From IMG/VR virus record IMGVR_UViG_2925914267_000001, positions 1 to 28,646 of that record: a stretch of DNA of 28,646 bases. One strand, 5' to 3'. Positions 5,752-23,234 of the stretch are shown one piece after another. The position numbers and the translations under genes are program-made. Origin of the DNA: a virus. Taxonomy: Duplodnaviria > Heunggongvirae > Uroviricota > Caudoviricetes. The first letter of the stretch is position 1, and each line of letters starts with the position of its first letter. The notes under the pieces are model-generated. The model was not told the DNA's origin and did not search any database. It worked only from the letters and a program-made list of their open reading frames with translations.

Positions 5752-5822
5752 TCCTGATTTTGATTTCTATAAAAAGAAAATAGAACAATATATCAACGAG
5801 GCGCAGTTTAATTCGAAACGAT

Positions 5823-6485
5823 ATGAGCCAACAGTCGAATAATCCGATGTTTATTTTAGGTGAGGGTTCTGGTGAGTTCTCACCTAGTTTGCTTTTTATC
5901 AAGAAGGATAATGAAGAAGGCCTGAGTGCTACTCATGCAGTTAAGGATATTAATACGATAATTGAAGTAGCTAGTTCTAATATTGTTGATGCAATACGGC
6001 ATCCACCTGAAACGCCTATTTTATCGTCATCACTTATTACGGCTCTTATTAGTACTATTTGTGCGGCCACTGCTGCATTTGCATATAATAAAGTCCATTG
6101 GCGTTCTGTTGTTAAACGGGAGACTAAAACCAAACTCCTGGAGAGTATTTCAGATGTGGTTAATGAGTTGCGTTCTGATGCTATTAGTTATTGGTTGAAG
6201 GGGTATTCAAAAAAGTCGGCGAAGTCTCTCTTAGAAGAGGAAATGAGAATTAAGGCGAGTTTAAATATAATAAATTCGACTATAACAATATATGTTCAGC
6301 AAGAGTCGCGATGGAAAAGAAAGGATATTGAAGCTCAGTTAAGGGTTTTTCATGACGAACTTTTTGATATTATAACAGGTGATGATTTTGAGTCTCAGGC
6401 AAGGAAGCAGGATAAGGCAAAGGTTTCTGCTATTTCTACAAAGTGTGTGGCTTTTCGCGTTTTATTAAATACCATCAAGTTTTAA
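5823..6485 (+). CDS. single-pass membrane protein, putative effector, function unknown
   Basis: 220 aa; hydrophobic helix ILSSSLITALISTICAATAAFAY (about nt 6018-6086); charged K/E-rich C-terminal part; same strand and AT-rich composition as the two genes upstream. Confidence 0.5.
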   Translation: MSQQSNNPMFILGEGSGEFSPSLLFIKKDNEEGLSATHAVKDINTIIEVASSNIVDAIRHPPETPILSSSLITALISTICAATAAFAYNKVHWRSVVKRETKTKLLESISDVVNELRSDAISYWLKGYSKKSAKSLLEEEMRIKASLNIINSTITIYVQQESRWKRKDIEAQLRVFHDELFDIITGDDFESQARKQDKAKVSAISTKCVAFRVLLNTIKF

Positions 6486-6617
6486 GATAGCCATGCATGA
6501 GTTTGGTGCATGAAAATGCATGAGGTTTTACGAATTATTTTGGCTAAAATCAGCCTGCCCTGACTGGCTACGGCAGATATCATGCACCTGCATTAAAACC
6601 GCCCCATGAAGCGGGCG

Positions 6618-6636: not shown

Positions 6637-6780
6637 TGCGCGCTGGCGGTGGTGCTGATTTTATTTTTTCAGCGTCTGAGCGCGTCGTGAAGGCGCTTAG
6701 TCTGCCCGTTGAGGCGTTGGTGTGTCTGCGGGGTGTTTTGTGCGGTGGTGAGCGTGTGAGCGCGTGATGACGGGGGTGTA

Positions 6781-6807: not shown

Positions 6808-7841
6808 TCAGCCGTTGTCAGTGTCCAGTGAGTAGTTTTTAAAGCGGATGACCTCCTGACCGAGCCAGCCGTTTATCTCGCGGATCCTGTCCTGTAGCGG
6901 GATAAGCTCATTGCGGACAAAGACCTTTGCCACTTTCTCAATATCACCCAGCGACCCGACGTTCTCCGGCTTGCCGCCCATCAACTGAAAGGGGATGCGG
7001 TGCGGCGTCCAGCAGGTCAGCGGCGCTGGCTTTTTTGATATTAAAAAAATCGTCCTTCGTTGCCACTTCACTGAGCGGGATAATTTTAATGCCGTCGGCT
7101 TTCCCCTGCGGGGCATAGAGAAACAGATTTTTAAAGTTGTTGCGGCCTTTCGACTTGACCATGTTTTCGCGAAGCATTTCGATATCGTTGCGATCCTGCA
7201 CGGCATCGGTGACGTACATGATATATCCGGCATGAGCGCCGTTTTCGTAATACTTGCGGCGGAACAGCGTGGCCGACTCATTCAGCCAGGCAGAATTAAG
7301 GGCGCTGAGATATTCCGGCAGGCCGTACAGCTCCTGATTAATATCCGGCTCCAGCAGGTGAAACACGGAGCCGGGCGCGAAGGCTGTCGGCTCGTGAAGG
7401 ACGGCACCCACCAGTAAACATCCTCCTCCACGCCACGGCGGGTATATTTTGCCGGTGAGGTTTCCAGTCTGATGACCTTACCGGTGGTGCTGTAACGCTT
7501 TTCCAGAAACGCATTACCGAACACCAGAAAATCCAGCACAAAGCGGCTGAAATCCTGCTGGAAAGCCACGGGTGCGGAATAAACGTTGAAGCCAGAATAT
7601 TACGTTTGACGTAAATCGGTGAGCTGTGATGTACGGCAGCACGCAGGCTTTTTGCCAGACCGGTAAAGCTGACCGGTGGCTCATACCATCTGCCGTTACT
7701 GATGCACTCGACGTAATCCAGAATGTCACGGCGGTCGAGTACCGGCACCGGTTCACCAAAGGTGAATGCCTCCATTTTCGGGGCGCTGGCGGTCATTTTT
7801 TTTGCCGCAGGTTGCGGTGTTTTCCCTTTTTTCTTGCTCAT
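6808..7841 (-). pseudogene. Q: portal protein gene Q, frame interrupted at three points
   Basis: Four consecutive - strand ORF pieces (7338-7841, 7282-7569, 6944-7411, 6808-7281) together cover a 344-aa P2 Q-like protein. Breaks are near 7560 and 7396 (1-nt deletions in G runs on the + strand) and near 6998-7006 (net +1). Confidence 0.8.
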
Positions 7842-9614
7842 CAGTAAAACTCCAGAATGGTGGATGTCAGCGGGGTGCTGATACCGGCGGTGAGTGGCTC
7901 ATTTAACAGGGCGTGCATGGTCGCCCAGGCGAGGTCGGCGTGGCTGGCTTCCTCGCTGCGGCTGGCCTCATAGGTGGCGCTGCGTCCGCTGCTGGTCATG
8001 GTCTTGCGGATAGCCATAAACGAGCTGGTGATGTCGGTGGCGCTGACGTCATATTCCAGACAGCCACGGCGGATAACGTCTTTTGCCTTGAGCACCATTG
8101 CGGTCTTCATTTCCGGCGTGTAGCGGATATCGCGCGCGGCGGGATAGAACGAGCGCACGAGCTGGAACACGCCGACACCAAGGCCGGTGGCATCAATACC
8201 GATGTATTCGACGTTGTATTTTTCGGTGAGTTTGCGGATGGATTCCGCCTGAGTGGCAAAGTCCATGCCTTTCCACTGGTGACGCTCAAGTATTCTGAAT
8301 TTGCCACCGACCACCACCGGCGGTGCCAGCACCACGCATCCGGCGCTGTCGCCACGGTGTGACGGGTCGTAACCAATCCATACCGGACGTGAGCCGAACG
8401 GATTTGCGGCAAACGGCGCATAGTCTTCCCATTCTTCCAGCGTGTCGACCATGCAGCGTTGCAGCTCCTCGAACGGGAACACCGACGCCTTGTCGTCAAC
8501 AAATTCACACATGAACAGGTTTTTTAAAATCGTCGGCGCTGTTTTCACGTTTGAGCTGCTCAATGTCGAACAGTGTGCAGCCACCTTTCAGGGCGTCCTC
8601 AATGGTGACAATCTGCCGCCACTGGCCGTCCGCACAGAGAAGACCTCCGGCAAGGGCGTTATGACTGACGTCGATTTCCACGCGTTCGGCGGCGCTGGCG
8701 CGTCCCCGGTTAAACAGTTCACCGGACCAGAACGGATAGGCGTCGTGCGCCAGCGTGGACGGGGTGGAGAAATAGGTCGAGCGCAGGTGACTCTGTGAGG
8801 CCATACCTGATGCCACCTTACGCAGTACCTGAAAATTCGGGATCCAGAAAATCTCGTCGACGTACAGGTCGCCGTTATGGCTCTGCGCGGTGTTGGAGTT
8901 GGTGCCGAGAAAAATCAGTTTTGCGCTGTTATTGCCCAGGACAATCGGGTCACCGGTCAGGTCAACGTCAACCAGCCGGGCAAAGGCGATGATGTATTCG
9001 CGGAACACATACGCCTGCGTTTTACTGGCCGACAGAAAAATCTGGTTATGACCGGTTTTCAGGGCGCGCAGCAGCGCCTCGCGGGAAAAATAAAACGTCG
9101 CGCCAATCTGGCGGGATTTCAGGATATCGCGGATGCGGTGCTCAAGCCCGGCGCGATACCAGTGCAACTGATAGTCGAAAGACTGCTCAAAGAAAATCTG
9201 CTCCAGCTTTTCGATGGCCTCGTCACTGAAAAAATTCTTTTTCGGTTTGCGACGCCCGCCTTTGTTGCGGTTAGCGACGTTCGGATTAAGGTCTGCCTCG
9301 TTGCCGGTCTGACTGTAGCGGTTGACCCGCGCCAGCCGTTCAATCTGGCGTCCCAGCAGGTCAATTTCCTTGAAGTCACCGCCGGTTTTCTGCGGTTTGA
9401 TGATGAGCTGGGTCAGCCGCGCTTCCAGACTCATTTCGACACGGCTGATGGGGGCAACGCTGTCCCAGCCGTCGCGCTGTTTCCAGCTCTGCACCGTCGG
9501 GCGTTTCATCTGCAACATGGCGGCAATCTGCGGCACGGAAAACCCCTGCCAGTACAGCAGCGCCGCCTGACGACGCGGGTCGTGTAAAAGAGTGGTGTCT
9601 GTGGTGATGGTCAT
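7841..9614 (-). pseudogene. P: terminase large subunit gene P, frame interrupted once
   Basis: ORFs 8505-9644 and 7841-8584 together match the 590-aa P2 gpP; ATG at 9614 (MTITTDTTLLHDP) after GAGG; break at the T6/A6 run 8519-8524; stop overlaps the Q start. Confidence 0.8.
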
Positions 9615-9787
9615 GAATACCTCGCCGTGATGAATACACGGCAAGGCTACTGAGTCGCGCCCCGCGATTCGCTAAGGTGCTGTTGTGTCAGTGATAAGCC
9701 ATCCGGGACTGATGGCGGAGGATGCGCATCGTCGGGAAACTGATGCCGACATGTGACTCCTCTAATCACTATTCAGGACTCCTGACA
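9615..9787. promoter_or_regulatory. divergent late-promoter region between P and O (Ogr-dependent in P2)
   Basis: Intergenic region between divergently oriented P and O. By P2 knowledge it holds the two late promoters, but I found only imperfect TGT-N12-ACA-like dyads. Confidence 0.35.
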
Positions 9788-10641
9788 ATGGCAAAAAAAG
9801 TCTCAAAATTCTTTCGTATCGGCGTTGAGGTGACACCTGTGACGGGCGTGTCATCAGTGCGCAGGATATTCAGGAAATGGCCGAAACCTTTGACCCGCGT
9901 GTCTATGGTTGCCGCATTAACCTGGAACATCTGCGCGGCATCCTGCCTGACGGTATTTTTAAGCGTTATGGCGATGTGGCCGAACTGAAGGCCGAAAAGA
10001 TTGACGATGATTCGGCGCTGAAAGGCAAATGGGCGCTGTTTGCGAAAATCACCCCGACCGATGACCTTATCGCGATGAACAAGGCCGCGCAGAAGGTCTA
10101 CACCTCAATGGAAATTCAGCCGAACTTTGCCAATACCGGCAAATGTTATCTGGTGGGTCTGGCCGTCACCGATGACCCGGCAAGCCTCGGCACGGAATAC
10201 CTGGAATTCTGCCGCACGGCAAAACACAACCCCCTGAACCGCTTCAAATTAAGCCCTGAAAACCTGATTTCAGTGGCAACGCCCGTTGAGCTGGAATTTG
10301 AAGACCTGCCTGAAACCGTGTTCACCGCCCTGACCGAAAAGGTGAAATCCATTTTTGGCCGCAAACAGGCCAGCGATGACGTCCGTCTGAATGACGTGCA
10401 TGAAGCGGTGACCGCTGTTGCTGAACATGTGCAGGAAAAACTGAGCGCCACTGAGCAGCGCCTCGCTGAGGTGGAAACCGCCTTTTCCGCACTTAAGCAG
10501 GAGGTGACTGACAAGGTGGATGAAACCAGCCAGGCATTCACCCGCCTGAAAAACAGTCTCGACCACACCGAAAGTCTGACCCAGCAGCGCCGCAGCAAGG
10601 CCACCGGTGGTGGCGGTGACGCCCTGATGACGAACTGCTGA
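9788..10641 (+). pseudogene. O: capsid scaffold gene O, frame interrupted once
   Basis: MAKKVSKFFRIGVE from ATG 9788, then a frame change near 9827-9831 (GAGGTGAC, one G short), then a continuous P2 gpO match to 10641; reconstructed length 284 aa. Confidence 0.8.
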
Positions 10642-10699
10642 CCGGCGTCAGTCAGTCCGGGAAAACCTTCACGATTAACCCTTAATTTCAGGAAAAACT

Positions 10700-11772
10700 A
10701 TGCGCCAGGAAACCCGCTTTAAATTTAATGCCTACCTGTCCCGTGTTGCCGAACTGAACGGCATCGACGCCGGTGATGTGTCGAAAAAATTCACCGTTGA
10801 ACCGTCGGTCACCCAGACCCTGATGAACACCATGCAGGAGTCCTCTGATTTTCTGACCCGCATCAATATTGTGCCGGTCAGCGAAATGAAAGGGGAAAAA
10901 ATTGGCATCGGTGTCACCGGCTCCATTGCCAGCACCACCGACACCGCCGGTGGCACCGAGCGTCAGCCGAAGGATTTTTCGAAGCTGGCGTCAAACAAGT
11001 ACGAATGCGACCAGATTAACTTCGATTTTTATATCCGCTACAAAACGCTTGACCTGTGGGCGCGTTATCAGGATTTCCAGCTCCGTGTCCGTAACGCCAT
11101 TATCAAACGTCAGGCTCTTGATTTAATCATGGCCGGTTTTAACGGTGTGAAGCGTGCCGAAACCTCTGACCGCAGCAGTAACCCGATGCTGCAGGATGTG
11201 GCGGTCGGCTGGCTGCAGAAATACCGCAATGAAGCCCCGGCGCGCGTGATGAGTAAGGTCACTGACGAGGAAGGCCGCACCACCTCTGAGGTTATCCGCG
11301 TGGGTAAGGGCGGTGATTATGCCAGCCTTGATGCACTGGTGATGGATGCGACCAACAACCTGATTGAGCCGTGGTATCAGGAAGACCCTGACCTTGTGGT
11401 GATTGTGGGGCGTCAGTTACTGGCGGACAAGTATTTCCCCATCGTTAACAAGGAGCAGGACAACAGCGAAATGCTGGCCGCTGACGTCATCATCAGCCAG
11501 AAACGCATCGGTAACCTGCCAGCGGTACGCGTCCCGTACTTCCGGCGGATGCGATGCTCATCACGAAGCTGGAAAACCTGTCCATCTACTACATGGATGA
11601 CAGCCATCGCCGCGTGATTGTGGAAAACCCGAAACTCGACCGCGTGGAGAACTACGAGTCAATGAACATTGATTACGTGGTGGAAGACTACGCCGCCGGT
11701 TGTCTGGTGGAAAAAATTAAGGTCGGTGATTTCTCCACACCGGCTAAGGCGACCGCAGAGCCGGGAGCGTAA
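10700..11772 (+). pseudogene. N: major capsid protein gene N, frame interrupted once
   Basis: ORFs 10700-11617 and 11554-11772 together match the 357-aa P2 gpN; break near 11540-11548 (TTCCGGCGG, one C short). Confidence 0.8.
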
Positions 11773-11775
11773 CCG

Positions 11776-12561
11776 ATGACGAGTCCCGCACAGCGCCACA
11801 TGATGCGGGTCTCGGCAGCGATGACCGCGCAGCGGGAAGCCGCCCCGCTGCGACATGCAACTGTCTATGAGCAGATGCTGGTTAAGCTCGCCGCAGACCA
11901 GCGCACACTGAAAGCGATTTATTCAAAAGAGCTGAAGGCCGCGAAAAAACGCGAACTGCTGCCGTTCTGGTTGCCGTGGGTGAACGGCGTGCTGGAACAG
12001 GGCAAAGGTGCACAGGATGACATTCTGATGACGGTCATGCTGTGGCGTCTGGATACCGGCGATATTGCCGGTGCGCTGGAGATTGCCCGTTATGCCCTGA
12101 AGTACGGTCTGACCATGCCGGGTAAACACCGCCGCACTCCGCCGTACATGTTCACCGAGGAGGTGGCGCTTGCGGCCATACGCGCTCACGCTGCCGGTGA
12201 ATCCGTGGATACCCGCCTGCTGACGGAGACCCTTGAACTGACCGCCACGGCTGACATGCCTGATGAAGTGCGCGCAAAGCTGCACAAAATCACCGGTCTG
12301 TTTCTGCGTGACGGTGGTGATGCCGCCGGTGCGCTGGCTCACCTGCAACGTGCGACCCGGCTCGACTGTCAGGCAGGCGTCAAAAAAGAGATTGAACGAC
12401 TGGAGCGGGAGCTGAAACCGAAGCCGGAGCAGCAACCCAAAGCGGCCACCCGTGCCACGCGTAAGACCCGGAGCGTGACACCGGCAAAACGTGGACGCCC
12501 GAAAAGAAAGCCAGTTAACAACCGAATGCGCCCCGCGCCAGGGCGGCACGCCGGTCAGTGA
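11776..12561 (+). CDS. M: terminase small (endonuclease) subunit
   Basis: 261 aa; MTSPAQRHMMRVSAAMTAQREAAPLRH... matches recalled P2 gpM; position after N. Confidence 0.85.
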   Translation: MTSPAQRHMMRVSAAMTAQREAAPLRHATVYEQMLVKLAADQRTLKAIYSKELKAAKKRELLPFWLPWVNGVLEQGKGAQDDILMTVMLWRLDTGDIAGALEIARYALKYGLTMPGKHRRTPPYMFTEEVALAAIRAHAAGESVDTRLLTETLELTATADMPDEVRAKLHKITGLFLRDGGDAAGALAHLQRATRLDCQAGVKKEIERLERELKPKPEQQPKAATRATRKTRSVTPAKRGRPKRKPVNNRMRPAPGRHAGQ

Positions 12562-13615: not shown

Positions 13616-14112
13616 TGCCGGTTATTAACACGCATCAGAATATCGCCGCCTTTCTCGACATGCTGGCCGTGTCCGAAGGGACGGCGAATCATCCGCTGAC
13701 GAAAAACCGGGGCTATGACGTGATAGTCACCGGACTGGACGGGAAGCCGGAAATTTTCACCGACTACAGTGACCACCCGTTCGCGCATGGCCGACCGGCG
13801 AAGGTGTTTAACCGTCGCGGTGAAAAGTCCACGGCCTCCGGTCGCTATCAGCAGCTTTACCTGTTCTGGCCGCACTACCGCAAACAGCTTGCCCTGCCGG
13901 ATTTCAGTCCGTTGTCACAGGACAGACTCGCCATTCAGTTGATCCGCGAACGCGGTGCACTGGATGACATCCGGGCGGGACGCATTGAGTGCGCCATTTC
14001 ACGCTGTCGCAATATCTGGGCGTCCCTGCCGGGTGCCGGTTACGGTCAGCGTGAGCATTCACTGGAAAAACTGGTCACCGTCTGGCGTACCGCTGGCGGC
14101 GTACCGGCTTAA
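13615..14112 (+). CDS. K: endolysin (lysozyme)
   Basis: 165 aa; matches P2 gpK in sequence and position after the holin. Confidence 0.85.
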   Translation: MPVINTHQNIAAFLDMLAVSEGTANHPLTKNRGYDVIVTGLDGKPEIFTDYSDHPFAHGRPAKVFNRRGEKSTASGRYQQLYLFWPHYRKQLALPDFSPLSQDRLAIQLIRERGALDDIRAGRIECAISRCRNIWASLPGAGYGQREHSLEKLVTVWRTAGGVPA

Positions 14113-14126
14113 ACGGAGTAAACACC

Positions 14127-14552
14127 ATGAAGAAATTATCCCTTTCACTGATGCTGAACGTGTCGCTGGCGCTGATGCTGGCACTGTCCCTGATTTACCC
14201 GCAGAGCGTGGCCGTCAGTTTTGTCGCTGCCTGGGCGATTCTGGCGATGATTATTTGTGTGGTTGCCGGTGGTGTCGGCGTGTATGCCACGGAGTATGTA
14301 CTTGAACGCTACGGGCGGGAGCTGCCACCGGAATCGCTGGCCGTGAAGATTGTCACGTCGCTGTTTTTGCAGTCGGTGCCGTGGTGCAGACGGGCGGCGG
14401 CTCTGGTAGTGATGGTGGCGACGTTTATCTCGCTGGTTGCCGCCGGGTGGATTTTTACTGCGCTGATTTATCTCGTGGCGTCGCTGTTTTTCCGGCTGAT
14501 ACGCACGGCCTGCCGTCAGCGTCTTGAGGGGCGGGAACTATGTCAAAGCTGA
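14127..14552 (+). CDS. lysA: LysA, membrane lysis-timing protein
   Basis: 141 aa, multiple hydrophobic helices; P2 lysA position. Confidence 0.8.
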   Translation: MKKLSLSLMLNVSLALMLALSLIYPQSVAVSFVAAWAILAMIICVVAGGVGVYATEYVLERYGRELPPESLAVKIVTSLFLQSVPWCRRAAALVVMVATFISLVAAGWIFTALIYLVASLFFRLIRTACRQRLEGRELCQS

Positions 14553-14965
14553 TGATTGCACTGGTCGTGTTGTTATCGCTGGCGGTGGCGGGGCTGTTTC
14601 TGGTGAAGCATGAAAACGCCAGACTGCGCTACTCGCTGGACAGGGCGAACAGCGTCGCCAGCGGGCAGCAGACGACCATCACCATGCTGAAAAATCAGCT
14701 TCATGTTGCCCTCACCAGGGCAGACAAAAACGAGCTGGCGCAGGTGGCACTGCGTCAGGAACTGGAGAACGCCGCGAAGCGTGAAGCACAGCGCGAGAAA
14801 ACCATCACGAGGTTACTGAATGAAAACGAAGATTTTCGCCGCTGGTACGGCGCTGGCCTGCCTGATGCTGTGCGCCGGTTGCACCAGCGCCCGGCCTGCG
14901 CCGACGCCAGTGATTGTCCACAACGCCTGCCCGAAAGTGAGCCTTTGCCCGATGCCGGGCAGTGA
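14540..14965 (+). CDS. lysB: LysB, Rz-like inner-membrane spanin
   Basis: 141 aa with N-terminal TM helix and coiled-coil-like body; P2 lysB position. Confidence 0.8.
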   Translation: MSKLMIALVVLLSLAVAGLFLVKHENARLRYSLDRANSVASGQQTTITMLKNQLHVALTRADKNELAQVALRQELENAAKREAQREKTITRLLNENEDFRRWYGAGLPDAVRRLHQRPACADASDCPQRLPESEPLPDAGQ

Positions 14966-15110
14966 CCCGGAGACGAACGGCGATTTAAGTGCTGATATCC
15001 GGCAGCTTGAGAACGCGCTGGCACGCTGTGCCAGCCAGGTAAAAATGATTAAACACTGTCAGGACGAAAACGATGCTCAAACCCGACAGCCTGCGCAGGG
15101 CGCTGACTGA
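14820..15110 (+). CDS. lysC: LysC, Rz1-like outer-membrane lipoprotein spanin, partly embedded out of frame in lysB
   Basis: 96 aa; signal peptide with lipobox (LCAGC); Pro-rich; begins inside lysB in another frame. Confidence 0.75.
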   Translation: MKTKIFAAGTALACLMLCAGCTSARPAPTPVIVHNACPKVSLCPMPGSDPETNGDLSADIRQLENALARCASQVKMIKHCQDENDAQTRQPAQGAD

Positions 15111-15540
15111 TGCCGTCACGGTGCTGAAAACTAACCCCGATATGCTGCGGATATTCGTGGATAACGGGAGTATTGCCTCCACACTGGCGACGTCGCTGTC
15201 ATTCGAAAAGCGTTACACGCTCAATGTGATTGTGACCGACTTTACCGGTGATTTTGACCTGCTCATTGTGCCGGTGCTGGCGTGGCTGCGGGAAAATCAG
15301 TCCGACATCATGACCACCGACGAAGGCCAGAAAAAGGGCTTCACGTTTTATGCAGACATCAACAATGACAGCAGCTTTGATATCAGCATCAGCCTGACGC
15401 TGACCGAGCGCACGCTGGTCAGTGAGGTGGACGGCGCACTGCATGTGAAGAATATCCCGGAACCCCCGCCGCCGGAGCCGGTTACCCGCCCGATGGAGCT
15501 GTATATCAATGGCGAACTGGTGAGCAAGTGGGATGAATGA
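15073..15540 (+). CDS. R: tail completion protein R
   Basis: 155 aa; matches P2 gpR in length and order. Confidence 0.85.
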   Translation: MLKPDSLRRALTDAVTVLKTNPDMLRIFVDNGSIASTLATSLSFEKRYTLNVIVTDFTGDFDLLIVPVLAWLRENQSDIMTTDEGQKKGFTFYADINNDSSFDISISLTLTERTLVSEVDGALHVKNIPEPPPPEPVTRPMELYINGELVSKWDE

Positions 15541-15985
15541 GTTTAAGCGTTTTGAAGACCGGCTGGCCGGACTGACTGAATCGCTGTCACCGTCAGGGCG
15601 TCGGCGACTGAGTGCCGAACTGGCGAAACGTCTGCGGCAGAGTCAGCAGCGTCGGGTGATGGCACAGAAAGCCCCGGACGGCACACCCTACGTGCCACGC
15701 CAGCAGCAGAGCGCCAGAAAAAAGACTGGTCGTGTTAAGCGAAAAATGTTTGCGAAACTTATCACCAGTCGTTTTTTGCATATCCGCGCCAGCCCGGAGC
15801 AGGCATCAATGGAGTTTTACGGCGGGAAGTCGCCGAAAATCGCCAGTGTGCATCAGTTCGGTCTGTCGGAAGAAAACCGGAAAGACGGTAAGAAAATTGA
15901 TTATCCGGCGCGTCCTCTGCTCGGCTTTACCGGTGAGGATGTGCAGATGATTGAAGAGATTATCCTGGCTCACCTCGACCGTTAG
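15533..15985 (+). CDS. S: tail completion protein S
   Basis: 150 aa; matches P2 gpS in length and order. Confidence 0.85.
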   Translation: MNEFKRFEDRLAGLTESLSPSGRRRLSAELAKRLRQSQQRRVMAQKAPDGTPYVPRQQQSARKKTGRVKRKMFAKLITSRFLHIRASPEQASMEFYGGKSPKIASVHQFGLSEENRKDGKKIDYPARPLLGFTGEDVQMIEEIILAHLDR

Positions 15986-16051
15986 TTGTGCCATTCCCGA
16001 CACCTCATCGGCACATTGCCGCCGGTATGACCCGGCGGCATCCTTCCCGTT

Positions 16052-16687
16052 ATGAACACTCTCGCAAATATTCAGGAACTCGCGCGCGCACTGCGCAACA
16101 TGATCCGCACCGGCATTATCGTCGAAACCGACCTTAACGCCGGTCGCTGCCGTGTGCAGACCGGCGGCATGTGCACCGACTGGCTTCAGTGGCTGACCCA
16201 TCGCGCCGGGCGTTCGCGCACATGGTGGGCACCTTCCGTGGGGGAGCAGGTGCTGATTCTGGCCGTGGGCGGTGAACTTGACACGGCGTTTGTTCTGCCG
16301 GGGATTTATTCCGGCGATAACCCCGCGCCGTCTGCGTCGGCGGATGCCCTGCATATCCGTTTCCCTGACGGGGCGGTGATTGAGTATGAACCCGAAACTA
16401 GTGCACTCACGGTAAGCGGAATTAAAACGGCCAGCGTGACGGCTTCTGATTCTGTTACTGCCAGGGTGCCTGTGGTCATGGTGAAAGCATCAACCCGCGT
16501 CACCCTGGACACACCGGAGGTGGTCTGCACCAACAAGCTGATCACCGGCACGCTGGAAGTGCAGAAGGGCGGGACGATGCGCGGCAACATTGAACACACC
16601 GGCGGTGAACTCTCATCAAACGGTAAGGTACTGCATACCCATAAACACCCAGGAGACAGCGGCGGCACAACCGGGAGTCCTCTATGA
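16052..16687 (+). CDS. V: baseplate spike / assembly protein V
   Basis: 211 aa; matches P2 gpV. Confidence 0.85.
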   Translation: MNTLANIQELARALRNMIRTGIIVETDLNAGRCRVQTGGMCTDWLQWLTHRAGRSRTWWAPSVGEQVLILAVGGELDTAFVLPGIYSGDNPAPSASADALHIRFPDGAVIEYEPETSALTVSGIKTASVTASDSVTARVPVVMVKASTRVTLDTPEVVCTNKLITGTLEVQKGGTMRGNIEHTGGELSSNGKVLHTHKHPGDSGGTTGSPL

Positions 16688-17031
16688 CAGCACGTTATCT
16701 CGGAATGAATCGCAGTGATGGCCTGACTGTCACTGACCTTGAGCATATCAGCCAGAGTATCGGCGATATCCTGCGCACACCGGTCGGCTCACGGGTGATG
16801 CGTCGTGATTACGGCTCGTTGCTGGCATCAATGATTGACCAGCCGCAGACCCCGGCGCTTGAGTTGCAGATTAAGGTCGCCTGTTACATGGCGGTGCTGA
16901 AATGGGAACCCCGCGTCACCCTGTCATCCGTCACCACTGAGCGCAGTTTTGAGGGGCGAATGACGGTCACGTTAACCGGTCAGCACAACGACACCGGCCA
17001 GCCACTTTCGTTAACCATCCCTGTGAGTTGA
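16684..17031 (+). CDS. W: baseplate wedge protein W (gp25-like)
   Basis: 115 aa; matches P2 gpW; start overlaps the V stop. Confidence 0.85.
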   Translation: MTARYLGMNRSDGLTVTDLEHISQSIGDILRTPVGSRVMRRDYGSLLASMIDQPQTPALELQIKVACYMAVLKWEPRVTLSSVTTERSFEGRMTVTLTGQHNDTGQPLSLTIPVS

Positions 17032-17035
17032 AACC

Positions 17036-17944
17036 ATGCCGATTATCGACCTGAACCAGCTACCCGCACCGGATGTGGTCGAGGAGCTGGACTTTGAAAC
17101 CATTCTTGCCGAACGCAAGGCGACACTGATTTCCCTTTACCCGGAAGACCAGCAGGAGGCGGTCGCCCGTACCCTGACGCTGGAATCTGAGCCTCTCGTC
17201 AAACTGCTGGAGGAAAATGCTTATCGTGAGCTTATCTGGCGTCAGCGTGTGAATGAGGCCGCACGGGCGGTGATGCTGGCCTGTGCAGCCGGTAATGACC
17301 TTGATGTGATTGGTGCCAATTACAACACCACACGCCTGACTATCACCCCGGCAGATGATTCGACCATCCCGCCGACACCGGCAGTGATGGAGTCTGACAC
17401 CGATTATCGTCTGCGTATTCAGCAGTCATTTGAGGGCTTAAGCGTCGCCGGGTCGGTGGGAGCCTATCAGTATCATGGTCGCAGTGCCGACGGGCGTGTC
17501 GCGGATATCTCTGTCACCAGTCCGTCTCCGGCCTGCGTCACCATCTCCGTGCTGTCACGTGAAAATAACGGTGTCGCATCCGAAGACCTGCTGGCCGTGG
17601 TGCGTAACGCCCTGAATGGCGAGGACGTCAGACCGGTGGCCGACCGCGTGACCGTGCAGTCCGCCGCCATCGTTGAATACCAGATAAACGCCACGCTTTA
17701 CCTTTACCCTGGTCCCGAAAGCGAACCCATTCGCGCTGCCGCCGTGAAAAAACTGGAAGCGTATATCACGGCACAGCACCGGCTGGGGCGCGACATCCGT
17801 CTGTCTGCCATTTATGCCGCTTTGCATGTGGAAGGCGTGCAGCGTGTCGAGCTGGCCGCACCACTGGCCGACATTGTGCTCAACAGTACGCAGGCGTCTT
17901 TCTGCACCGAATACAGCGTCGTGACCGGAGGCTCGGATGAGTGA
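17036..17944 (+). CDS. J: baseplate assembly protein J
   Basis: 302 aa; matches P2 gpJ. Confidence 0.85.
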   Translation: MPIIDLNQLPAPDVVEELDFETILAERKATLISLYPEDQQEAVARTLTLESEPLVKLLEENAYRELIWRQRVNEAARAVMLACAAGNDLDVIGANYNTTRLTITPADDSTIPPTPAVMESDTDYRLRIQQSFEGLSVAGSVGAYQYHGRSADGRVADISVTSPSPACVTISVLSRENNGVASEDLLAVVRNALNGEDVRPVADRVTVQSAAIVEYQINATLYLYPGPESEPIRAAAVKKLEAYITAQHRLGRDIRLSAIYAALHVEGVQRVELAAPLADIVLNSTQASFCTEYSVVTGGSDE

Positions 17945-18548
17945 TTCGCGCCTGCTGCCGACCGGCTCATCACCGCTTGAAGTTGCCGCCGCAAAAGCCT
18001 GTGCGGAAATTGAAAAAACGCCGGTCAGTATTCGTGAACTGTGGAACCCGGATACCTGTCCGGCAAATCTGCTGTCGTGGCTGGCGTGGTCATTTTCGGT
18101 TGACCGCTGGGATGATAAGTGGCCGGAAGCGACAAAACGCGCTGTTATCCGCGATGCGTATTTCATTCACTGCCATAAGGGCACTATAGGCGCAATCCGG
18201 CGTGTGGTGGAGCCGCTCGGCTATCTGATTGAGGTGAGGGAGTGGTGGCAGCTCAACGAGGAACCGGGGACGTTCCGCATCGTTGTTGGCGTGCTTGAGC
18301 AGGGTATTACCGAGGAAATGTATCAGGAGCTGGAGCGTCTCGTTGCTGATGCAAAACCTGCAAGCCGCCATCTGACGGGACTGGCTATCAGTTTAAGTAC
18401 AACCGGCAACATTTTTGCCGGTGCGGGATGCTATCACGGCGACGCCCTGACGGTTTATCCCTACACCCCGGAGGCCATTATTGTCGGAGGGGATTATTTC
18501 CCGGCCTCGGCCATTCATTTAATTGATAACCTGAGAGTAAACGCATGA
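17937..18548 (+). CDS. I: baseplate protein I
   Basis: 203 aa; N-terminal MSDSRLLPTGSSPLEVAAAKACAEIEKTPVSIRELWNPDT matches P2 gpI; longer than I recall for P2 (176 aa). Confidence 0.8.
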   Translation: MSDSRLLPTGSSPLEVAAAKACAEIEKTPVSIRELWNPDTCPANLLSWLAWSFSVDRWDDKWPEATKRAVIRDAYFIHCHKGTIGAIRRVVEPLGYLIEVREWWQLNEEPGTFRIVVGVLEQGITEEMYQELERLVADAKPASRHLTGLAISLSTTGNIFAGAGCYHGDALTVYPYTPEAIIVGGDYFPASAIHLIDNLRVNA

Positions 18549-19846
18549 CAGTGAAATACTACGCCATTCTGACTAATCAGGGCGCAGCACGGCTGGCTAA
18601 CGCGACGATGCTTGGCAGTAAGCTGAATCTGACGCAAATGGCCGTTGGTGATGCGAATGGTGTCTTGCCGACACCAGACCCGGCACAGACAAAACTGATT
18701 AATCAGAAACGCATTGCACCGCTGAATCTTCTGAGTGTTGACCCGAACAACCAGAGCCAGATTATTGCGGAGCAAATCATCCCTGAGAACGAGGGCGGAT
18801 TCTGGATCCGTGAGATTGGGCTTTATGATGATGAAGGCGTACTCATTGCGGTGGCCAACTGCCCGGAAACGTACAAACCGCAGTTACAGGAAGGCAGTGG
18901 TCGTACCCAGACTATCCGCATGATTCTGGTTGTCACGAATATCGAAGCCATCACGCTGAAAATCGACCCGTCGGTGGTACTGGCGACCCGTAAATATGTG
19001 GATGATGAAGTCCTGGAATTAAGGCTGTATGTGGATGACCAGATGAGAAACCACATTGCCGCACAGGATCCTCATACCCAGTATGCACAGAAACATAATC
19101 CGACATTTACCGGAGAACCAAAAGCCCCGACGCCTGCCGCAGGAAATAACACCACGCGGATTGCGACCACTGAGTTTGTTCAGGCCGCTATTACCGCTCT
19201 GATTAACGGCGCGCCAGCCACGCTGGACACACTGAAAGAAATTGCCGCAGCCATTAACAATGACCCGAAATTCAGCACCACCATTAACAATGCGCTGTCA
19301 GGTAAGCAGCCACTGGATGAGACGCTGACTCATTTGAGCGGAAAGGATGTTGCCGGCCTTCTCGCATACCTTGGTTTGGGAGAAGGCTCTGTATTACCCG
19401 TTGGTGTGCCTGTTCCGTGGCCTTCAGCCACACTGCCAACAGGCTGGCTGAAATGCAACGGGGCGGCATTTTCTGCTGAAGAATACCCGGAACTGGCAAA
19501 GGCTTACCCGACAAATATATTGCCTGATTTACGTGGTGAATTTATTCGTGGCTGGGATGACGGGCGCGGAGTGGACAGTAGCCGGACGTTGTTGTCGTGG
19601 CAAAAAGGCTCTTATCTGGTTCAGGAAGCCAATATATCACCCGACAGCGTGGTGCAGTTTTCGGTAAACGACATTGCCCTGCTGGGATGGGATAAAACTG
19701 AAACCAATTCAGATATTCTCAGAGCGAAAAGTATACCTACAGAACATATCTGGAACCCCGTTCCAGTGGGAGCCTGGGGGATTCAGTATCTGGGTTATGC
19801 AAGGCCACGTAACATTGCATTTAACTACATCGTAAGGGCTGCATGA
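18545..19846 (+). CDS. H: tail fibre protein H: constant N-terminal part plus the currently expressed variable C-terminal part
   Basis: 433 aa; N-terminus MTVKYYAILTNQGAARLANA... is P2 gpH-like; C-terminal part has a phage tail-collar-like stretch (PVGVPVPWPSATLPTGWLKCNG); the crossover site lies inside the gene at 19359-19384. Confidence 0.85.
   Translation: MTVKYYAILTNQGAARLANATMLGSKLNLTQMAVGDANGVLPTPDPAQTKLINQKRIAPLNLLSVDPNNQSQIIAEQIIPENEGGFWIREIGLYDDEGVLIAVANCPETYKPQLQEGSGRTQTIRMILVVTNIEAITLKIDPSVVLATRKYVDDEVLELRLYVDDQMRNHIAAQDPHTQYAQKHNPTFTGEPKAPTPAAGNNTTRIATTEFVQAAITALINGAPATLDTLKEIAAAINNDPKFSTTINNALSGKQPLDETLTHLSGKDVAGLLAYLGLGEGSVLPVGVPVPWPSATLPTGWLKCNGAAFSAEEYPELAKAYPTNILPDLRGEFIRGWDDGRGVDSSRTLLSWQKGSYLVQEANISPDSVVQFSVNDIALLGWDKTETNSDILRAKSIPTEHIWNPVPVGAWGIQYLGYARPRNIAFNYIVRAA
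19359..19384 (+). repeat. left gix/hix-like 26-bp crossover site TTCTCGCATACCTTGGTTTGGGAGAA
   Basis: 12-2-12 structure like hix/gix; 14 bp (TTGGTTTGGGAGAA) are perfectly inverted at 21309-21322. Confidence 0.7.
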
Positions 19847-20463
19847 TGAGCAAGAAAACCATGACTACAGCGGTGCTGAATGAATCGCGGCTGGCAACAG
19901 TTGCAGGAGAGGTTGTTGTCCACAGCTACGATAATAAGACGCGGGAATACCTTTGCACGTCAACCGAATATCTGGCTGTGGGCGTTGGCCTTCCTGCACA
20001 TTCATGCACTGATGCCCCCGGGGAAAGGCGGGCTGGTTATGCAATTTGCCGCACAGCCGACCTGACCGCGTGGGAGTACGTGCCGGACCATCGGGGTGAG
20101 ACAGTCTATAACACAGAAACCCGTGAGGCAGCAGAAATCACCACTCCGGGGGATTACCCTGAAAACACAACCACTGTCGCCCCGTTAACGCCATACGATG
20201 AATGGGATGGTGAGAAATGGGTGACAGATACTGAGGCACAGCATAGCGCCGCAGTAGGCGCGGCAGAAACACAGCGACAGTCACTGATTGATACTGCAAT
20301 GGCTTCCATTAATCTGATTCAACTGAAATTGCAGGCCGGGCGAAAACTGACGCAGACAGAAACCACCCGGCTTAACGTCGTGCTGGATTACATTGACGCG
20401 GTGACGGTAACTGATACCAGCACCGCGCCGGATATCAATTGGCCTGCTCCCCCGGAGGCGTAG
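19843..20463 (+). CDS. G: tail fibre assembly chaperone (Tfa), expressed orientation
   Basis: 206 aa; start overlaps the H stop; sits inside the invertible segment, like U of Mu. Confidence 0.75.
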   Translation: MMSKKTMTTAVLNESRLATVAGEVVVHSYDNKTREYLCTSTEYLAVGVGLPAHSCTDAPGERRAGYAICRTADLTAWEYVPDHRGETVYNTETREAAEITTPGDYPENTTTVAPLTPYDEWDGEKWVTDTEAQHSAAVGAAETQRQSLIDTAMASINLIQLKLQAGRKLTQTETTRLNVVLDYIDAVTVTDTSTAPDINWPAPPEA

Positions 20464-20851
20464 GCCAGACGGGATTTGATGTATCAACGCGCATCAGTAA
20501 GACCCGATATTTTTTCCATTCAGACAACGCGGCGGTTTCTTCTGCCGTCGCGATTTCCGCATCAAAAGCATCCTGTCTCCAGACTATTTCCTTATCAGCC
20601 ATTGAACGCAATACCGTTCTTTTCTGTTCAGCCTGAATAATCTGTTGTTCAGCGGAGAGTGGCGGGATATCAATCCATGCAGGATTACCATTTTTATCAG
20701 CCCCCAGCGTTTTGCCTTCTGGCGCTACGCCTGTGTAAATTGCCATTGTTTCATCATCAACATCAACGCCATTTTCAGGCCATGAACCGGCGCTGATATA
20801 TACCTCTTTTAGTGCTTTCGGATAGAAAGAGCCTTTATAAAATTTATTCAT
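20435..20851 (-). CDS. alternative tail fibre assembly chaperone (Tfa'), silent orientation
   Basis: 139 aa from ATG 20851 (MNKFYKGSFYPKALKEVYI...); convergent with G and overlapping it by 29 bp; begins just after the stop of the alternative fibre segment. Confidence 0.7.
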   Translation of the reverse strand: MNKFYKGSFYPKALKEVYISAGSWPENGVDVDDETMAIYTGVAPEGKTLGADKNGNPAWIDIPPLSAEQQIIQAEQKRTVLRSMADKEIVWRQDAFDAEIATAEETAALSEWKKYRVLLMRVDTSNPVWPTPPGEQAN

Positions 20852-20853
20852 TC

Positions 20854-21335
20854 TTAATACCCCAGCGCGATAAAACAACAATCTTCGGTGCCCTCTCCGG
20901 ATGGCGACCAGTTCTGAATACTGATATGCGTTCTGCTGGCAATACGCACATTCATCGCGGCATTGTAGCCAGATGTTCCACGGTTTCCGGTCGCAAACAA
21001 GCCTGCATAGGGAAAAGCAAATGGTAAGGCATATCCAGCATCAGCTCCCTTTTGTGTTGCCACCGTTCCCCACTGCAACATAAGTTTCACCGGGTTTCCT
21101 GTCGTCGCAATGCATGGAATGTAGATGTAGCCATTACCTGACATCATTGACCTGAAGCTGTCTAAATCCAGTAACTTCGAGGCATTATCTGCTCCAACAT
21201 CTCGTGTTGCAGCGGTCCCTAACTGGAGCGCATTTCGGAAGGCTGATACATCAGAAATATCAGATCCATTAGCCGATTTCTGCATAGCTCTGGAGGCTCT
21301 ATTTATCGTTTCTCCCAAACCAACGTTTATGAAAA
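20854..21335 (-). CDS. alternative tail-fibre C-terminal segment (H' variable part) with no start of its own; expressed only after inversion
   Basis: - strand frame open from the right gix-like site to stop 20854; reads ...FINVGLGETIN... across the crossover, sharing GLGE with H at the left site. Confidence 0.7.
21310..21335 (+). repeat. right gix/hix-like 26-bp crossover site TTCTCCCAAACCAACGTTTATGAAAA
   Basis: Inverted partner of the left site; resembles hixL TTCTTGAAAACCAAGGTTTTTGATAA; lies 55 bp upstream of the invertase start. Confidence 0.7.
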
Positions 21336-21390
21336 TGCAGAGATAACGGGCAAGTGGCATCATCTCCGGTTTTTATTCAGGGGGATGCTC

Positions 21391-21984
21391 ATGCTTATTG
21401 GCTATGTACGCGTGTCAACAAATGACCAGAACACGGAATTGCAGCGTAACGCGCTGGAGTGCGCAGGATGTGAGCTGATTTTTGAGGATAAAATCAGCGG
21501 CACGAAGTCCGACAGGCCGGGGCTGAAAAAACTGCTCAGAACATTATCGGAAGGTGACACTCTGGTAGTCTGGAAGCTGGACCGGCTGGGGCGTAGTATG
21601 CGGCATCTGGTCATTCTGGTTGAGGAGCTGCGCGAACGCGGCATTAATTTTCGCAGCCTGACGGATGCCATTGATACCAGCACGCCGATGGGGCGTTTTT
21701 TCTTTCATGTGATGGGTGCCCTGGCTGAAATGGAGCGAGAACTCATTGTCGAGCGGACACGCGCCGGACTGGAGGCGGCCAGAGCCAAAGGTCGTATTGG
21801 TGGCAGACGTCCGAAACTCACCGCGAGTGAGTGGGAGCAGGCCGGGCGGTTGCTGGCTGCAGGGGAATCACGTCAACGCGTGGCACTGATTTTTGATATT
21901 GGCCTGTCCACGCTCTATAAAAAATTCCCCGCCTCAGTGACAAAAAATAAATTGTGTCATCCCTTAGCCAACCGGGACAAATAG
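21391..21984 (+). CDS. serine recombinase, DNA invertase of the Gin/Cin/Pin/Hin family
   Basis: MLIGYVRVSTNDQNTELQRNAL... with the catalytic Ser in YVRVSTNDQ; C-terminal helix-turn-helix-like region; strong similarity to Gin as I recall it. Confidence 0.85.
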   Translation: MLIGYVRVSTNDQNTELQRNALECAGCELIFEDKISGTKSDRPGLKKLLRTLSEGDTLVVWKLDRLGRSMRHLVILVEELRERGINFRSLTDAIDTSTPMGRFFFHVMGALAEMERELIVERTRAGLEAARAKGRIGGRRPKLTASEWEQAGRLLAAGESRQRVALIFDIGLSTLYKKFPASVTKNKLCHPLANRDK

Positions 21985-22043
21985 CCTGACATCTCCGGCA
22001 CAACTAAAAATATCAGTCACCCATTAACCACGGAGTTAAACGG

Positions 22044-23234
22044 ATGAGTGACTATCATCACGGCGTGCAGGTGCTGGAGATTAACGACGGCACCCGCGTC
22101 ATTTCCACCGTATCCACTGCCATTGTCGGCATGGTCTGCACGGCCAGCGATGCGGATGCGGAAACCTTCCCCCTCAATAAACCGGTGCTGATTACCAATG
22201 TGCAGAGCGCAATTGCAAAGGCTGGTAAAAAAGGCACGCTGGCGGCGTCGTTACAGGCCATCGCCGACCAGTCAAAACCGGTCACCGTTGTCGTGCGTGT
22301 GGAAGACGGCACCGGTGACGACGAGGAAACGAAACTCGCGCAGACCGTTTCCAATATCATCGGCACCACCGACGAAAACGGTCAGTACACCGGACTGAAA
22401 GCCCTGCTGGCGGCAGAGTCGGTAACCGGTGTTAAACCGCGTATTCTCGGCGTGCCGGGACTGGACATCAAAGAGGTGGCTGTTGCACTGGCATCAGTCT
22501 GTCAGAAGCTGCGCGCTTTCGGGTATATCAGCGCATGGGGCTGTAAAACCATTTCCGAGGTGAAAGCCTACCGCCAGAATTTCAGCCAGCGTGAGCTGAT
22601 GGTCATCTGGCCGGATTTCCTCGCATGGGATACGGTCACCAGTACCACCGCCACCGCGTATGCCACCGCCCGTGCGCTGGGTCTGCGCGCTAAAATCGAC
22701 CAGGAGCAGGGCTGGCATAAAACGCTGTCCAATGTCGGGGTGAACGGTGTTACCGGCATCAGCGCATCCGTCTTCTGGGATTTGCAGGAGTCCGGCACCG
22801 ATGCTGACCTGCTTAACGAGTCAGGCGTCACTACGCTGATTCGCCGCGACGGTTTCCGCTTCTGGGGTAACCGTACCTGCTCCGATGACCCGCTGTTCCT
22901 CTTTGAAAACTACACCCGCACCGCGCAGGTGCTGGCCGACACGATGGCTGAGGCGCACATGTGGGCGGTGGACAAGCCCATCACTGCAACGCTGATTCGC
23001 GACATCGTTGACGGCATCAATGCCAAATTCCGTGAGCTGAAAACAAACGGCTATATCGTGGATGCGACCTGCTGGTTCAGCGAAGAATCCAACGATGCGG
23101 AAACCCTCAAGGCCGGAAAACTGTATATCGACTATGACTATACCCCGGTGCCTCCTCTTGAAAACCTGACCCTGCGCCAGCGTATTACCGATAAATACCT
23201 GGCAAATCTGGTCACCTCGGTTAACAGCAATTAA
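22044..23234 (+). CDS. FI: contractile tail sheath protein
   Basis: 396 aa; matches P2 gpFI. Confidence 0.9.
   Translation: MSDYHHGVQVLEINDGTRVISTVSTAIVGMVCTASDADAETFPLNKPVLITNVQSAIAKAGKKGTLAASLQAIADQSKPVTVVVRVEDGTGDDEETKLAQTVSNIIGTTDENGQYTGLKALLAAESVTGVKPRILGVPGLDIKEVAVALASVCQKLRAFGYISAWGCKTISEVKAYRQNFSQRELMVIWPDFLAWDTVTSTTATAYATARALGLRAKIDQEQGWHKTLSNVGVNGVTGISASVFWDLQESGTDADLLNESGVTTLIRRDGFRFWGNRTCSDDPLFLFENYTRTAQVLADTMAEAHMWAVDKPITATLIRDIVDGINAKFRELKTNGYIVDATCWFSEESNDAETLKAGKLYIDYDYTPVPPLENLTLRQRITDKYLANLVTSVNSN

Follow-up and report, generated by a model that had tools for sequence, protein, structure and literature searches.

The window analyzed here is a single stretch of 28,646 nucleotides from a member of the Caudoviricetes, in which 80–84% of positions 1–25000 matches six P2-like phage records at 96–98% identity. 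The late-region gene order V-W-J-I-H...FI-FII-E-T-U-D is preserved and conservation with P2 extends to the pF promoter region, so that both gene order and sequence place the element among the Peduovirus (P2-like) prophages. At the position occupied here by a tail-fibre switch, P2 itself carries fun(Z) between G and FI, as an initial annotation of this DNA had stated. The annotation's wording that this phage "has gained" the switch presumes a direction that can only be inferred, and invertase cassettes are common at the P2 Z/fun hotspot (bioRxiv 10.1101/2024.10.15.618418), so that the cassette is not peculiar to this phage.

Tail-fibre gene H and its two cassettes

In the orientation present in the window, tail-fibre gene H (18545-19846, plus strand) encodes 433 aa. 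Its constant N-terminal part (18545..19371, plus strand; 276 aa before the crossover) contains the Pfam Phage_tail_fib N-terminal domain (residues 1-150, E=5.6e-62) and is collinear with the annotated GpH of phage vB_EcoM-640R3 at 99.9% identity. The current variable C-terminus (19372..19846, plus strand) carries a Pfam Collar domain (residues 287-334, E=8.8e-14) and resembles StfE of prophage e14, to which it is 56% identical over 173 aligned aa, the first 200 nt being 92.6% identical. It is followed by the gene for the tail-fibre assembly chaperone Tfa (19861..20463, plus strand, with an alternative start at 19843; Pfam Caudo_TAP, E=2.6e-31), which is 76% identical to TfaE of e14 and has a homologue of 603 nt annotated by RefSeq in EJN001.

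The second cassette lies on the minus strand and comprises the chaperone gene of the alternative tip, Tfa' (20435..20851; Pfam Caudo_TAP, E=1.1e-31), and a silent alternative C-terminus of H (20854..21322; Pfam Gp53-like_C, E=1.7e-08). Homologues of Tfa' are annotated as tail fiber assembly protein in vB_EcoM-640R3 (L001), in E. coli ESY001 (L003) and in the locus designated L002, and the two chaperone genes overlap tail-to-tail by 29 nt. As it stands in the window, the ORF of the alternative C-terminus extends to 21363 and has no fibre N-terminus. When the segment is inverted in silico, the fusion to the constant part is in frame and open throughout, yielding an H' of 431 aa that corresponds to the annotated 1296-nt GpH of vB_EcoM-640R3, ESY001 and Sanji. 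Both fusions, of 433 and 431 aa, are therefore open and share the GLGE junction, after which 153 aa (current) and 151 aa (alternative) follow, close to the roughly 155 aa given in the initial annotation. The latter had also described two opposed cassettes, each with a C-terminus and a Tfa, and the Pfam domains on the plus and minus strands bear this out; the layout, with a constant N-terminus outside and two opposed C-terminus plus chaperone cassettes inside, is that of a tail-fibre inversion module. The NCBIfam models gave no match for the fibre and chaperone proteins. A scan for promoters inside the segment and ahead of the invertase returned one weak match versus 2.5 expected, with nothing above chance inside the segment. 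The two tips fall into different Pfam families (Collar versus Gp53-like_C), which only hints at a difference in host range.

Crossover sites, invertase and candidate enhancer

The left 26-bp crossover site (19359-19384) reads TTCTCGCATACC TT GGTTTGGGAGAA, with its core TT at 19371-19372; it lies within H and codes for LLAYLGLGE, so that the shared junction is encoded by the site itself. The right site (21310-21335), TTCTCCCAAACC AA CGTTTATGAAAA, has its core AA at 21322-21323 and adjoins the invertase gene. The two are in inverted orientation at a centre-to-centre distance of 1951 bp and delimit an invertible segment of 1951 bp core to core (19372..21322), in agreement with the initial claim of a site inside H and an inverted partner 1.95 kb away. 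Their inner half-sites match perfectly in inverted orientation (12/12) and their core dinucleotides are mutually complementary, such that the pair shows the arrangement of inverted 26-bp sites with 12-bp imperfect half-sites and matching 2-bp cores. A half-site scan allowing up to 2 mismatches found 3 matches versus 2.0 expected, so the 12-nt inverted match is unremarkable by itself. In contrast, a search with the complete palindromic consensus TTCTCNNAAACCNNGGTTTNNGAGAA, allowing 3 mismatches at most, returned exactly 2 matches, the two crossover sites, against 0.00 expected (100 shuffles). All positions of the right site agree with the e14 site beside pinE (26/26), while the left site matches the e14 left site CTCTCGAAAACCTTGGTTTGGGAGAA at 23 of 26 positions, its outer half TTCTCGCATACC differing from the e14 sequence at 3. 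Fuzzy and degenerate scans detected no third crossover site within the window; the switch is thus two-state, and a multi-site shufflon as in EPEC was ruled out, as the scans showed two sites only in the window.

The serine DNA invertase gene (21391..21984, plus strand) starts 55 nt downstream of the right site, compared with 54 nt in e14 and Mu, and the initial annotation was right to place a serine invertase there. Its ORF is intact and encodes 197 aa with Pfam Resolvase (residues 5-137, E=3.1e-52) and HTH_7 (residues 140-183, E=5.2e-13) domains, the stretch MLIGYVRVSTNDQ holding Ser9. The start at 21391 is that of the homologous MLIGYVRVS; an ATG at 21385 overlaps the GGGGGA ribosome-binding site. 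With its N-terminal catalytic serine and C-terminal helix-turn-helix the protein is a small serine recombinase, 88% identical to Pin of prophage e14 and 81% identical to Cin, and its residues 1-182 align with the Gin structure 3UJ3 (E=6.6e-95). NCBIfam gave only sub-cut-off scores, with the large serine recombinase and Mpi models. The label "Gin/Cin-type" was used initially, but the closest relative is Pin of e14, as both the protein and the 26/26 right site indicate. The last ~12 codons form a non-native 3' tail that shows no homology to Pin, Gin or Cin and reads into the P2 pF promoter region. A Salmonella phage invertase is 99% identical across all 197 residues, altered tail included, which suggests that the tail is tolerated. 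The promoter scan found nothing sigma-70-like in the interval separating the right site from the start of the invertase gene.

Within the 5' end of the invertase gene, positions 21409..21480 (plus strand) constitute a candidate Fis-dependent recombinational enhancer. This stretch gives an ungapped alignment with nt 19-90 of P1 cin, an interval labeled 'enhancer of Cin-mediated C-segment inversion' in the P1 record, and contains two near-invariant blocks (gene nt 22-38 and 71-86) ~48-49 nt apart. Nucleotide identity to pin, cin and gin is 85, 81 and 75% in the candidate enhancer versus 78, 68 and 70% elsewhere in the gene. A pre-specified test for excess synonymous conservation across the P1-annotated enhancer interval was not significant (5/19 versus 15/98, p=0.31). 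Local conservation peaks at invertase codons 1-12 and 25-36 were noted post hoc.

Orientation in relatives and rival readings

The initial annotation had predicted that the segment inverts, and natural inversions were found among relatives. Phage vB_EcoM-640R3 and the prophage of ESY001 carry 99.9%-identical DNA in which exactly 19372-21322 is flipped relative to both flanks. The breakpoints fall within 19368-19384 on the left and 21310-21323 on the right; they are reciprocal and lie inside the 14-17 nt common to both sites. Exchange at the site cores is thus seen by comparison with relatives rather than in the source clone. Sanji shows the inverted H junction and a matching gene layout, and vB_EcoM-640R3 and the prophages of ESY001, Sanji and EJN001 represent the same element, with ~99.7-99.9% identity over the stretch that runs from the tail genes up to the right site. 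In a set of 5,426 complete E. coli genomes, the H junction occurred in the window's form in 352 and in the inverted form in 82. Published read-level and PCR data prove flipping in e14 and in EPEC P2-like prophages (PMC4272514). The expectation of the initial annotation that the lysogen population is mixed in orientation draws indirect support from the comparison of relatives and from these published data on other P2-like prophages.

We also observed prophage copies whose invertase is destroyed by IS66 and which nevertheless occur in both orientations; the ISEc22-disrupted gene is found in ST167-lineage strains, EJN001 and ESY001 being examples. This fits cross-talk in which the invertases of other prophages flip the segment in trans.

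The anatomy of the locus, the family to which its sequence assigns it and the existence of natural copies in both orientations, with breakpoints in the sites, make us highly confident that it is a two-state, site-specific inversion switch. It would be of the Pin/Gin/Cin/Hin kind, whose serine invertases are enhancer-dependent, and it sits among the tail-fibre genes of a P2-like (Peduovirus) prophage. Its invertase (21391-21984) would bind both 26-bp sites and, by analogy with known systems, assemble them with host Fis and the candidate enhancer near the 5' end of the invertase gene into a synaptic complex; the dependence on Fis is likewise expected by analogy. Cleavage at the 2-bp cores (19371-72 and 21322-23) followed by strand rotation would then flip the 1951-bp segment. 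The segment is predicted to lack a promoter of its own, with no transcription starting inside it, and the transcribed cassette would be whichever one follows the constant part of H in frame, presumably read from the late V-W-J-I-H operon. In the window's orientation this would yield H with the StfE-like collar-domain tip, then Tfa; in the inverted orientation, H with the gp53-like tip, then Tfa'. A lysogenic clone should thereby release two kinds of virions differing in receptor specificity, on the premise that the two tips bind different receptors.

A different reading is that the switch is complete but silent in the source lysogen, the invertase being unmade or inactive and the orientation fixed unless an invertase acts in trans. 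The ~12 terminal codons that run into pF DNA and the missing match to a sigma-70-like promoter upstream of the gene would be in line with this. We nonetheless consider it improbable, as neither the catalytic nor the HTH domain is truncated, 88% identity to Pin is retained and Ser9 is present, as the Salmonella phage protein is 99% identical over 197 residues, and as close relatives are present in both orientations. It is less probable still that the inverted repeat is a product of chance, or a fossil, and that the orientations seen in databases stem from assembly error or homologous recombination; to this we assign almost no weight. An exact 12-nt inverted match in 3.6 kb is, indeed, not improbable, but 0.00 occurrences of the full 26-bp consensus are expected, a known functional site matches the right site at 26/26 positions, and precise, reciprocal breakpoints occur in independent complete genomes and a phage isolate, with 352 and 82 E. 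coli genomes carrying one or the other H junction. Efficient RecA recombination needs homology longer than 14-17 nt, and the common core is therefore too short for it. The consensus scan and the natural inversions effectively refute a chance inverted repeat.

The benefit of the switch might also accrue mainly to the bacterial host, a fibre chimera made by the lysogen blocking the adsorption of other phages. Such a role is reported for e14, where inversion of the P segment creates StfE2, a fibre that blocks T2 adsorption (PMC12529663), and H as it stands in the window ends in a StfE-like tip (56% at the protein level, 92.6% over the first 200 nt). The constant part, however, is P2 gpH in the late operon, and downstream of 13600 every tail, lysis and switch ORF has its full length, which fits a function in the virion. 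The P2 late operon is silent in lysogens, its late genes being controlled by Ogr, and we regard a main benefit to the host as very improbable. Upstream, the ORFs for the portal, large terminase, scaffold, capsid and small terminase are broken by single-base indels (window 7004-12501). Suspected indel positions across the window are 394, 1848, 7004, 7394, 7559, 8520, 9828, 11541 and 12501. The indels are private and lie in short single-base runs, and a 611-nt stretch of the portal gene holds three indels with zero accompanying substitutions; that the head-gene decay is real rather than sequencing error is unlikely. Were the indels real, we would be dealing with a P2 derivative that lacks heads and is kept as a tailocin-like particle, its killing spectrum toggled by the invertase, and hence an E. 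coli counterpart of carotovoricin Er. We hold this to be highly improbable, and flipping in trans in the relatives to be the more likely of the two.

Relation to known inversion systems

The inversion switch proposed here most closely resembles the P segment and Pin of e14. In addition to the invertase (88%) and the sites (26/26 right, 23/26 left, TT/AA cores), the two share the order of constant fibre part, cassette, inverted cassette, site and outward-reading invertase (54-55 nt from the site), the 29-nt tail-to-tail overlap of the tfa genes, and one homologous cassette (Tfa 76% identical to TfaE, H tip StfE-like). They differ in that the constant part is the P2 gpH N-terminus in a Peduovirus late operon here but the StfP/YcfK N-terminus in e14, that the second cassette (gp53-like tip and 138-aa Tfa') is only 24-31% identical to StfP/TfaP, and that the present invertase has an unrelated C-terminal tail, longer by 13 aa. 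Mu (G/Gin) and P1 (C/Cin) share the mechanism, the constant Sc followed by Sv/U and Sv'/U' cassettes, similar invertases (Cin 81%, Gin structure E=6.6e-95) and the 26-bp site pattern, and their enhancer lies where the candidate enhancer of the window does, early in the invertase gene. The sites were compared with gixL TTATCCAAAACC TC GGTTTACAGGAA and cixR TTCTCTTAAACC AA GGTATTGGATAA from the Mu and P1 records, Mu gix being one that the initial annotation had proposed for alignment. The gix core is TC/GA. Unlike in those phages, the segment is 1.95 kb (~3.06 kb in Mu, 4.26 kb in P1) with variable parts of only ~150 aa, and cin of P1 sits on the other side, reading toward the segment. Hin and the H segment of Salmonella belong to the same enhancer-dependent invertase family with the same 26-bp site architecture; Hin flips a promoter, causing flagellar phase variation, whereas the element described here swaps coding 3' ends and chaperones.

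Among P2-like phages, Fels-2 has a further invertible tail-fibre locus of this sort, with the invertase Fin. INPHARED Peduoviruses likewise have a 'DNA invertase' between the tail-fibre genes and FI. The P2-like prophage loci of EPEC E2348/69 occupy the Z/fun hotspot too, with the tail-fibre genes on one side and FI on the other, and they agree with the window in gene content and in switching between two variants (PMC4272514). Some P2-like relatives have three sites and four variants (PMC4272514), whereas the window has two sites only, with no other difference of substance.

The evidence thus supports a switch that is real but ordinary, already known, and better called Pin/e14-type than Gin/Cin-type. 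Biologically it is nothing new: invertible tail-fibre cassettes have been textbook material since Mu, P1 and e14, and both the cassettes at the Z/fun hotspot of P2-like phages and their flipping in culture are already published. Of modest interest are the copies that, despite an IS-destroyed invertase, are still found in both orientations. For annotation, the gain consists of exact crossover coordinates and an account of the minus-strand 'gp53-like' ORF that lacks a proper N-terminus. A 1.95-kb inversion is to be expected between assemblies of this prophage, and it reflects phase variation rather than misassembly or strain divergence.

Late-region context of the prophage

By homology, the window corresponds to late-region DNA of a P2-like (Peduovirus) prophage: each of six P2-like phage records covered 80–84% of positions 1–25000 at 96–98% identity, and the ORFs kept the P2 gene order (V, W, J, I, H ... 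FI, FII, E, T, U, D). As the initial annotation had held, P2 carries Z/fun at the position of the switch; in its record (NC_001895), fun(Z) sits between the tail-fibre genes and FI. P2 homology picked up again at around position 21953, in the pF promoter. Invertase cassettes at the Z/fun position of P2-like phages are common: a DNA invertase is annotated there in many Peduovirus records, and a 2024 preprint (10.1101/2024.10.15.618418) reported that this hotspot often encodes one, with inversion of the adjacent genes. Cargo occupied 4104–6580, at the old/tin position, the second P2 hotspot, which separates replication gene A from the portal gene; it included two plus-strand ORFs (4625–5455 and 5823–6485; 276 and 220 aa) with no match in Pfam. 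In relatives, this position is taken by cdtABC (a phage from O157:H43 T22) or by a DEAD/DEAH helicase (E. coli ESY001).

The prophage is mosaic, as positions 6990–7600 and 19222–21424 differ in their closest relatives. Indels aside, the former stretch, in the portal region, matched a P2-like prophage of O157:H7 strains, whereas the fibre and switch region was 99.9% identical to the prophage of E. coli EJN001 and ESY001 and only ~96% identical to that of O157:H7. Relative to ESY001 (97–99% identical to the window in this comparison), we observed nine one-base indels within short homopolymer runs (394, 1848, 7004, 7394, 7559, 8520, 9828, 11541 and 12501) and two further ones in non-coding DNA near 6775–6780, with none from 13847 to 23058. 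Seven of the nine fell in the portal, large terminase, scaffold, (major) capsid and small terminase genes, resulting in broken or mis-sized ORFs. No complete E. coli genome was found to share the three portal indels, and the best matches to the portal stretch were 99.5% identical, the value expected from these three indels alone. The upstream indels are thus most likely sequencing errors, a reading that does not explain why they are confined to the window's left half; if they were real, the element would be head-defective.

Fibre cassettes, crossover sites and invertase

The tail-fibre gene H (18545–19846, plus strand; 433 aa) encodes a tail-fibre N-terminal domain and a Collar domain, and its current C-terminus (19372–19846, plus strand) extends 153 aa beyond a GLGE motif. 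Next to it lies the chaperone gene tfa (19861–20463, plus strand; Caudo_TAP domain). On the minus strand we found tfa' (20435–20851), also with a Caudo_TAP domain, and an alternative C-terminus ORF (20854–21363; 169 aa, Gp53-like_C) with GLGE at residues 15–18 followed by 151 aa. These ORFs and domains bore out the initially annotated arrangement of two C-terminus and Tfa cassettes on opposite strands between the sites, with C-termini of about 155 aa after the shared GLGE. Joining 18545–19371 to the reverse complement of 20854–21322 gave an open 431-aa fibre, H', predicted to result from inversion. A promoter scan revealed no promoter-like signal above chance inside the invertible segment. The two chaperone genes converge with a 29-nt overlap (20435–20463), exactly as do tfaP and tfaE of e14, a defective prophage of E. 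coli K-12, and both Tfa and Tfa' end in WP-x-PP, encoded on opposite strands by nearly the same DNA. Tfa was 76% identical to TfaE of e14, and the variable part of H shared 92.6% identity with stfE over its first 200 nt, whereas the other cassette (gp53-like tip and Tfa') was only 24–31% identical to StfP/TfaP.

The left crossover site (19359–19384; TTCTCGCATACC TT GGTTTGGGAGAA, core TT at 19371–72) lies inside H, where it encodes LLAYLGLGE, and its inverted partner, the right site (21310–21335; TTCTCCCAAACC AA CGTTTATGAAAA, core AA at 21322–23), lies 1.95 kb off; both had been anticipated. The complementary cores are 1951 bp apart, centre to centre, and the inner half-sites form a perfect inverted match (12/12). 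Scans of the whole window with the site patterns returned no third crossover site. According to the annotated records, the corresponding sites are CTCTCGAAAACC TT GGTTTGGGAGAA (left) and TTCTCCCAAACC AA CGTTTATGAAAA (right) in e14, CAATCCTAAACC TT GGTTTAAGAGAA (cixL) and TTCTCTTAAACC AA GGTATTGGATAA (cixR) in P1, and TTATCCAAAACC TC GGTTTACAGGAA (gixL) and TTCCTGTAAACC GA GGTTTTGGATAA (gixR) in Mu.

The expected Gin-like serine invertase adjoins the right site (ORF 21385–21984, plus strand; Resolvase and HTH_7 domains). The homologous start, MLIGYVRVS, corresponds to the ATG at 21391, 5 nt past a GGGGGA ribosome-binding site, and includes the catalytic Ser9. The protein was 88% identical to Pin of e14 and 81% to Cin of P1, and residues 1–182 matched the Gin crystal-structure sequence 3UJ3 (E=6.6e-95). 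Because the right site is identical to that of e14 (26/26), the left site nearly so (23/26), and the distance from right site to invertase start similar (55 nt, compared with 54 nt in e14 and Mu), sequence comparison makes the switch a Pin/e14-type member of the Gin/Cin/Hin family; the original Gin/Cin-type label therefore holds for the family but not for the closest type. The last ~12 invertase codons (KNKLCHPLANRDK) and the stop fall within the homologue of the P2 pF activator-binding region. As P2 homology restarts within the ORF (3' end 21947–21984; region 21953–22043), the protein exceeds Pin by 13 aa and its tail is unrelated.

In the P1 record, cin nt 19–90 are annotated as the enhancer of C-segment inversion, and window 21409–21480 aligned with them without gaps. 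Across the window gene, pin, cin and gin, two blocks were near-invariant (gene nt 22–38 and 71–86; ~48–49 nt centre to centre), and the interval was 85/81/75% identical to pin/cin/gin, compared with 78/68/70% for the remaining gene. Since excess synonymous conservation over the interval, in a test set beforehand, was not significant (5/19 versus 15/98, p=0.31), we infer an enhancer in the 5' part of the gene by homology only.

Inversion among relatives

In phage vB_EcoM-640R3 (ON470613.1, Peduoviridae), whose DNA is 99.9% identical to the window, the stretch matching window 19368–21323 is flipped with respect to both flanks. Overlaps of 14 and 17 nt between the alignment pieces fall exactly on the core common to the sites, and the annotated 1296-nt GpH equals the predicted H' fusion. 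The ESY001 chromosome is likewise in the inverted state, with both reciprocal junctions present; for Sanji, a junction probe detected the inverted H junction, and the gene layout, as read from the annotation, is identical. EJN001 has the orientation of the window. A search of 5,426 complete E. coli genomes with 300-nt probes spanning the junctions found the window's H junction (at least 80% coverage) in 352 and its predicted inverted counterpart in 82. Given the flipped relatives and both junctions among these genomes, the predicted recombination is natural and recurrent, exactly at the predicted sites. Judging by these matches, near-identical copies of the window's own element are already in public databases.

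In EJN001 (L002 6881–9334), ISEc22 (IS66 family) is inserted at window 21416–21424 with a 9-nt duplication. It falls in invertase codons 9–12, and the first residues, including Ser9, are replaced (MLIGYVRVS to ...AARLP). The insertion point in ESY001 is identical by alignment, Sanji has the same gene layout, and the IS-disrupted carriers represent a clinical E. coli lineage. Both orientations occur among IS-disrupted copies (EJN001 as the window, ESY001 inverted); therefore, the segment flipped after IS insertion, presumably through trans action of a Pin-family invertase from another prophage. PinQ acting on e14 provides a precedent (PMC12529663).

Alternative explanations and the proposed switch

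A chance origin of the site pair could appeal to the 12-nt inverted match, which by itself is unremarkable within a few kb: the half-site alone, with up to 2 mismatches, had 3 matches versus 2.0 expected. The whole palindromic pattern (TTCTCNNAAACCNNGGTTTNNGAGAA, up to 3 mismatches) retrieved only the left and right sites, with 0.00 expected (100 shuffles). The switch might also be silent in the source lysogen. A third possibility is a role in host defence as for StfE2 (PMC12529663). Each of these explanations was weakly supported or refuted.

The observation of a tail-fibre switch is confirmed and its initial interpretation supported. For e14 in K-12 and two P2-like EPEC prophages, Goldberg et al. 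2014 (PMC4272514) demonstrated co-existing orientations by sequencing and PCR; of the EPEC prophages, one had two variants, the other three repeats and four variants. Since the hotspot preprint and this study describe such invertible cassettes, the element is correctly identified and of an already known kind. We consider it highly probable that the two-state inversion operates as a whole as proposed. On the model of Gin, Hin and Cin, the invertase would synapse both sites with the help of host Fis and of the enhancer within the 5' part of its gene, and cutting at the 2-bp cores followed by strand rotation would flip the segment of 1951 bp. Since the two sites have identical inner half-sites and cores, either orientation would again contain both of them along with the GLGE junction. 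Expression, from the late operon, would be limited to whichever cassette follows the constant part of H, so that virions would carry either a collar-type or a gp53-like tip, each with its own chaperone for folding.
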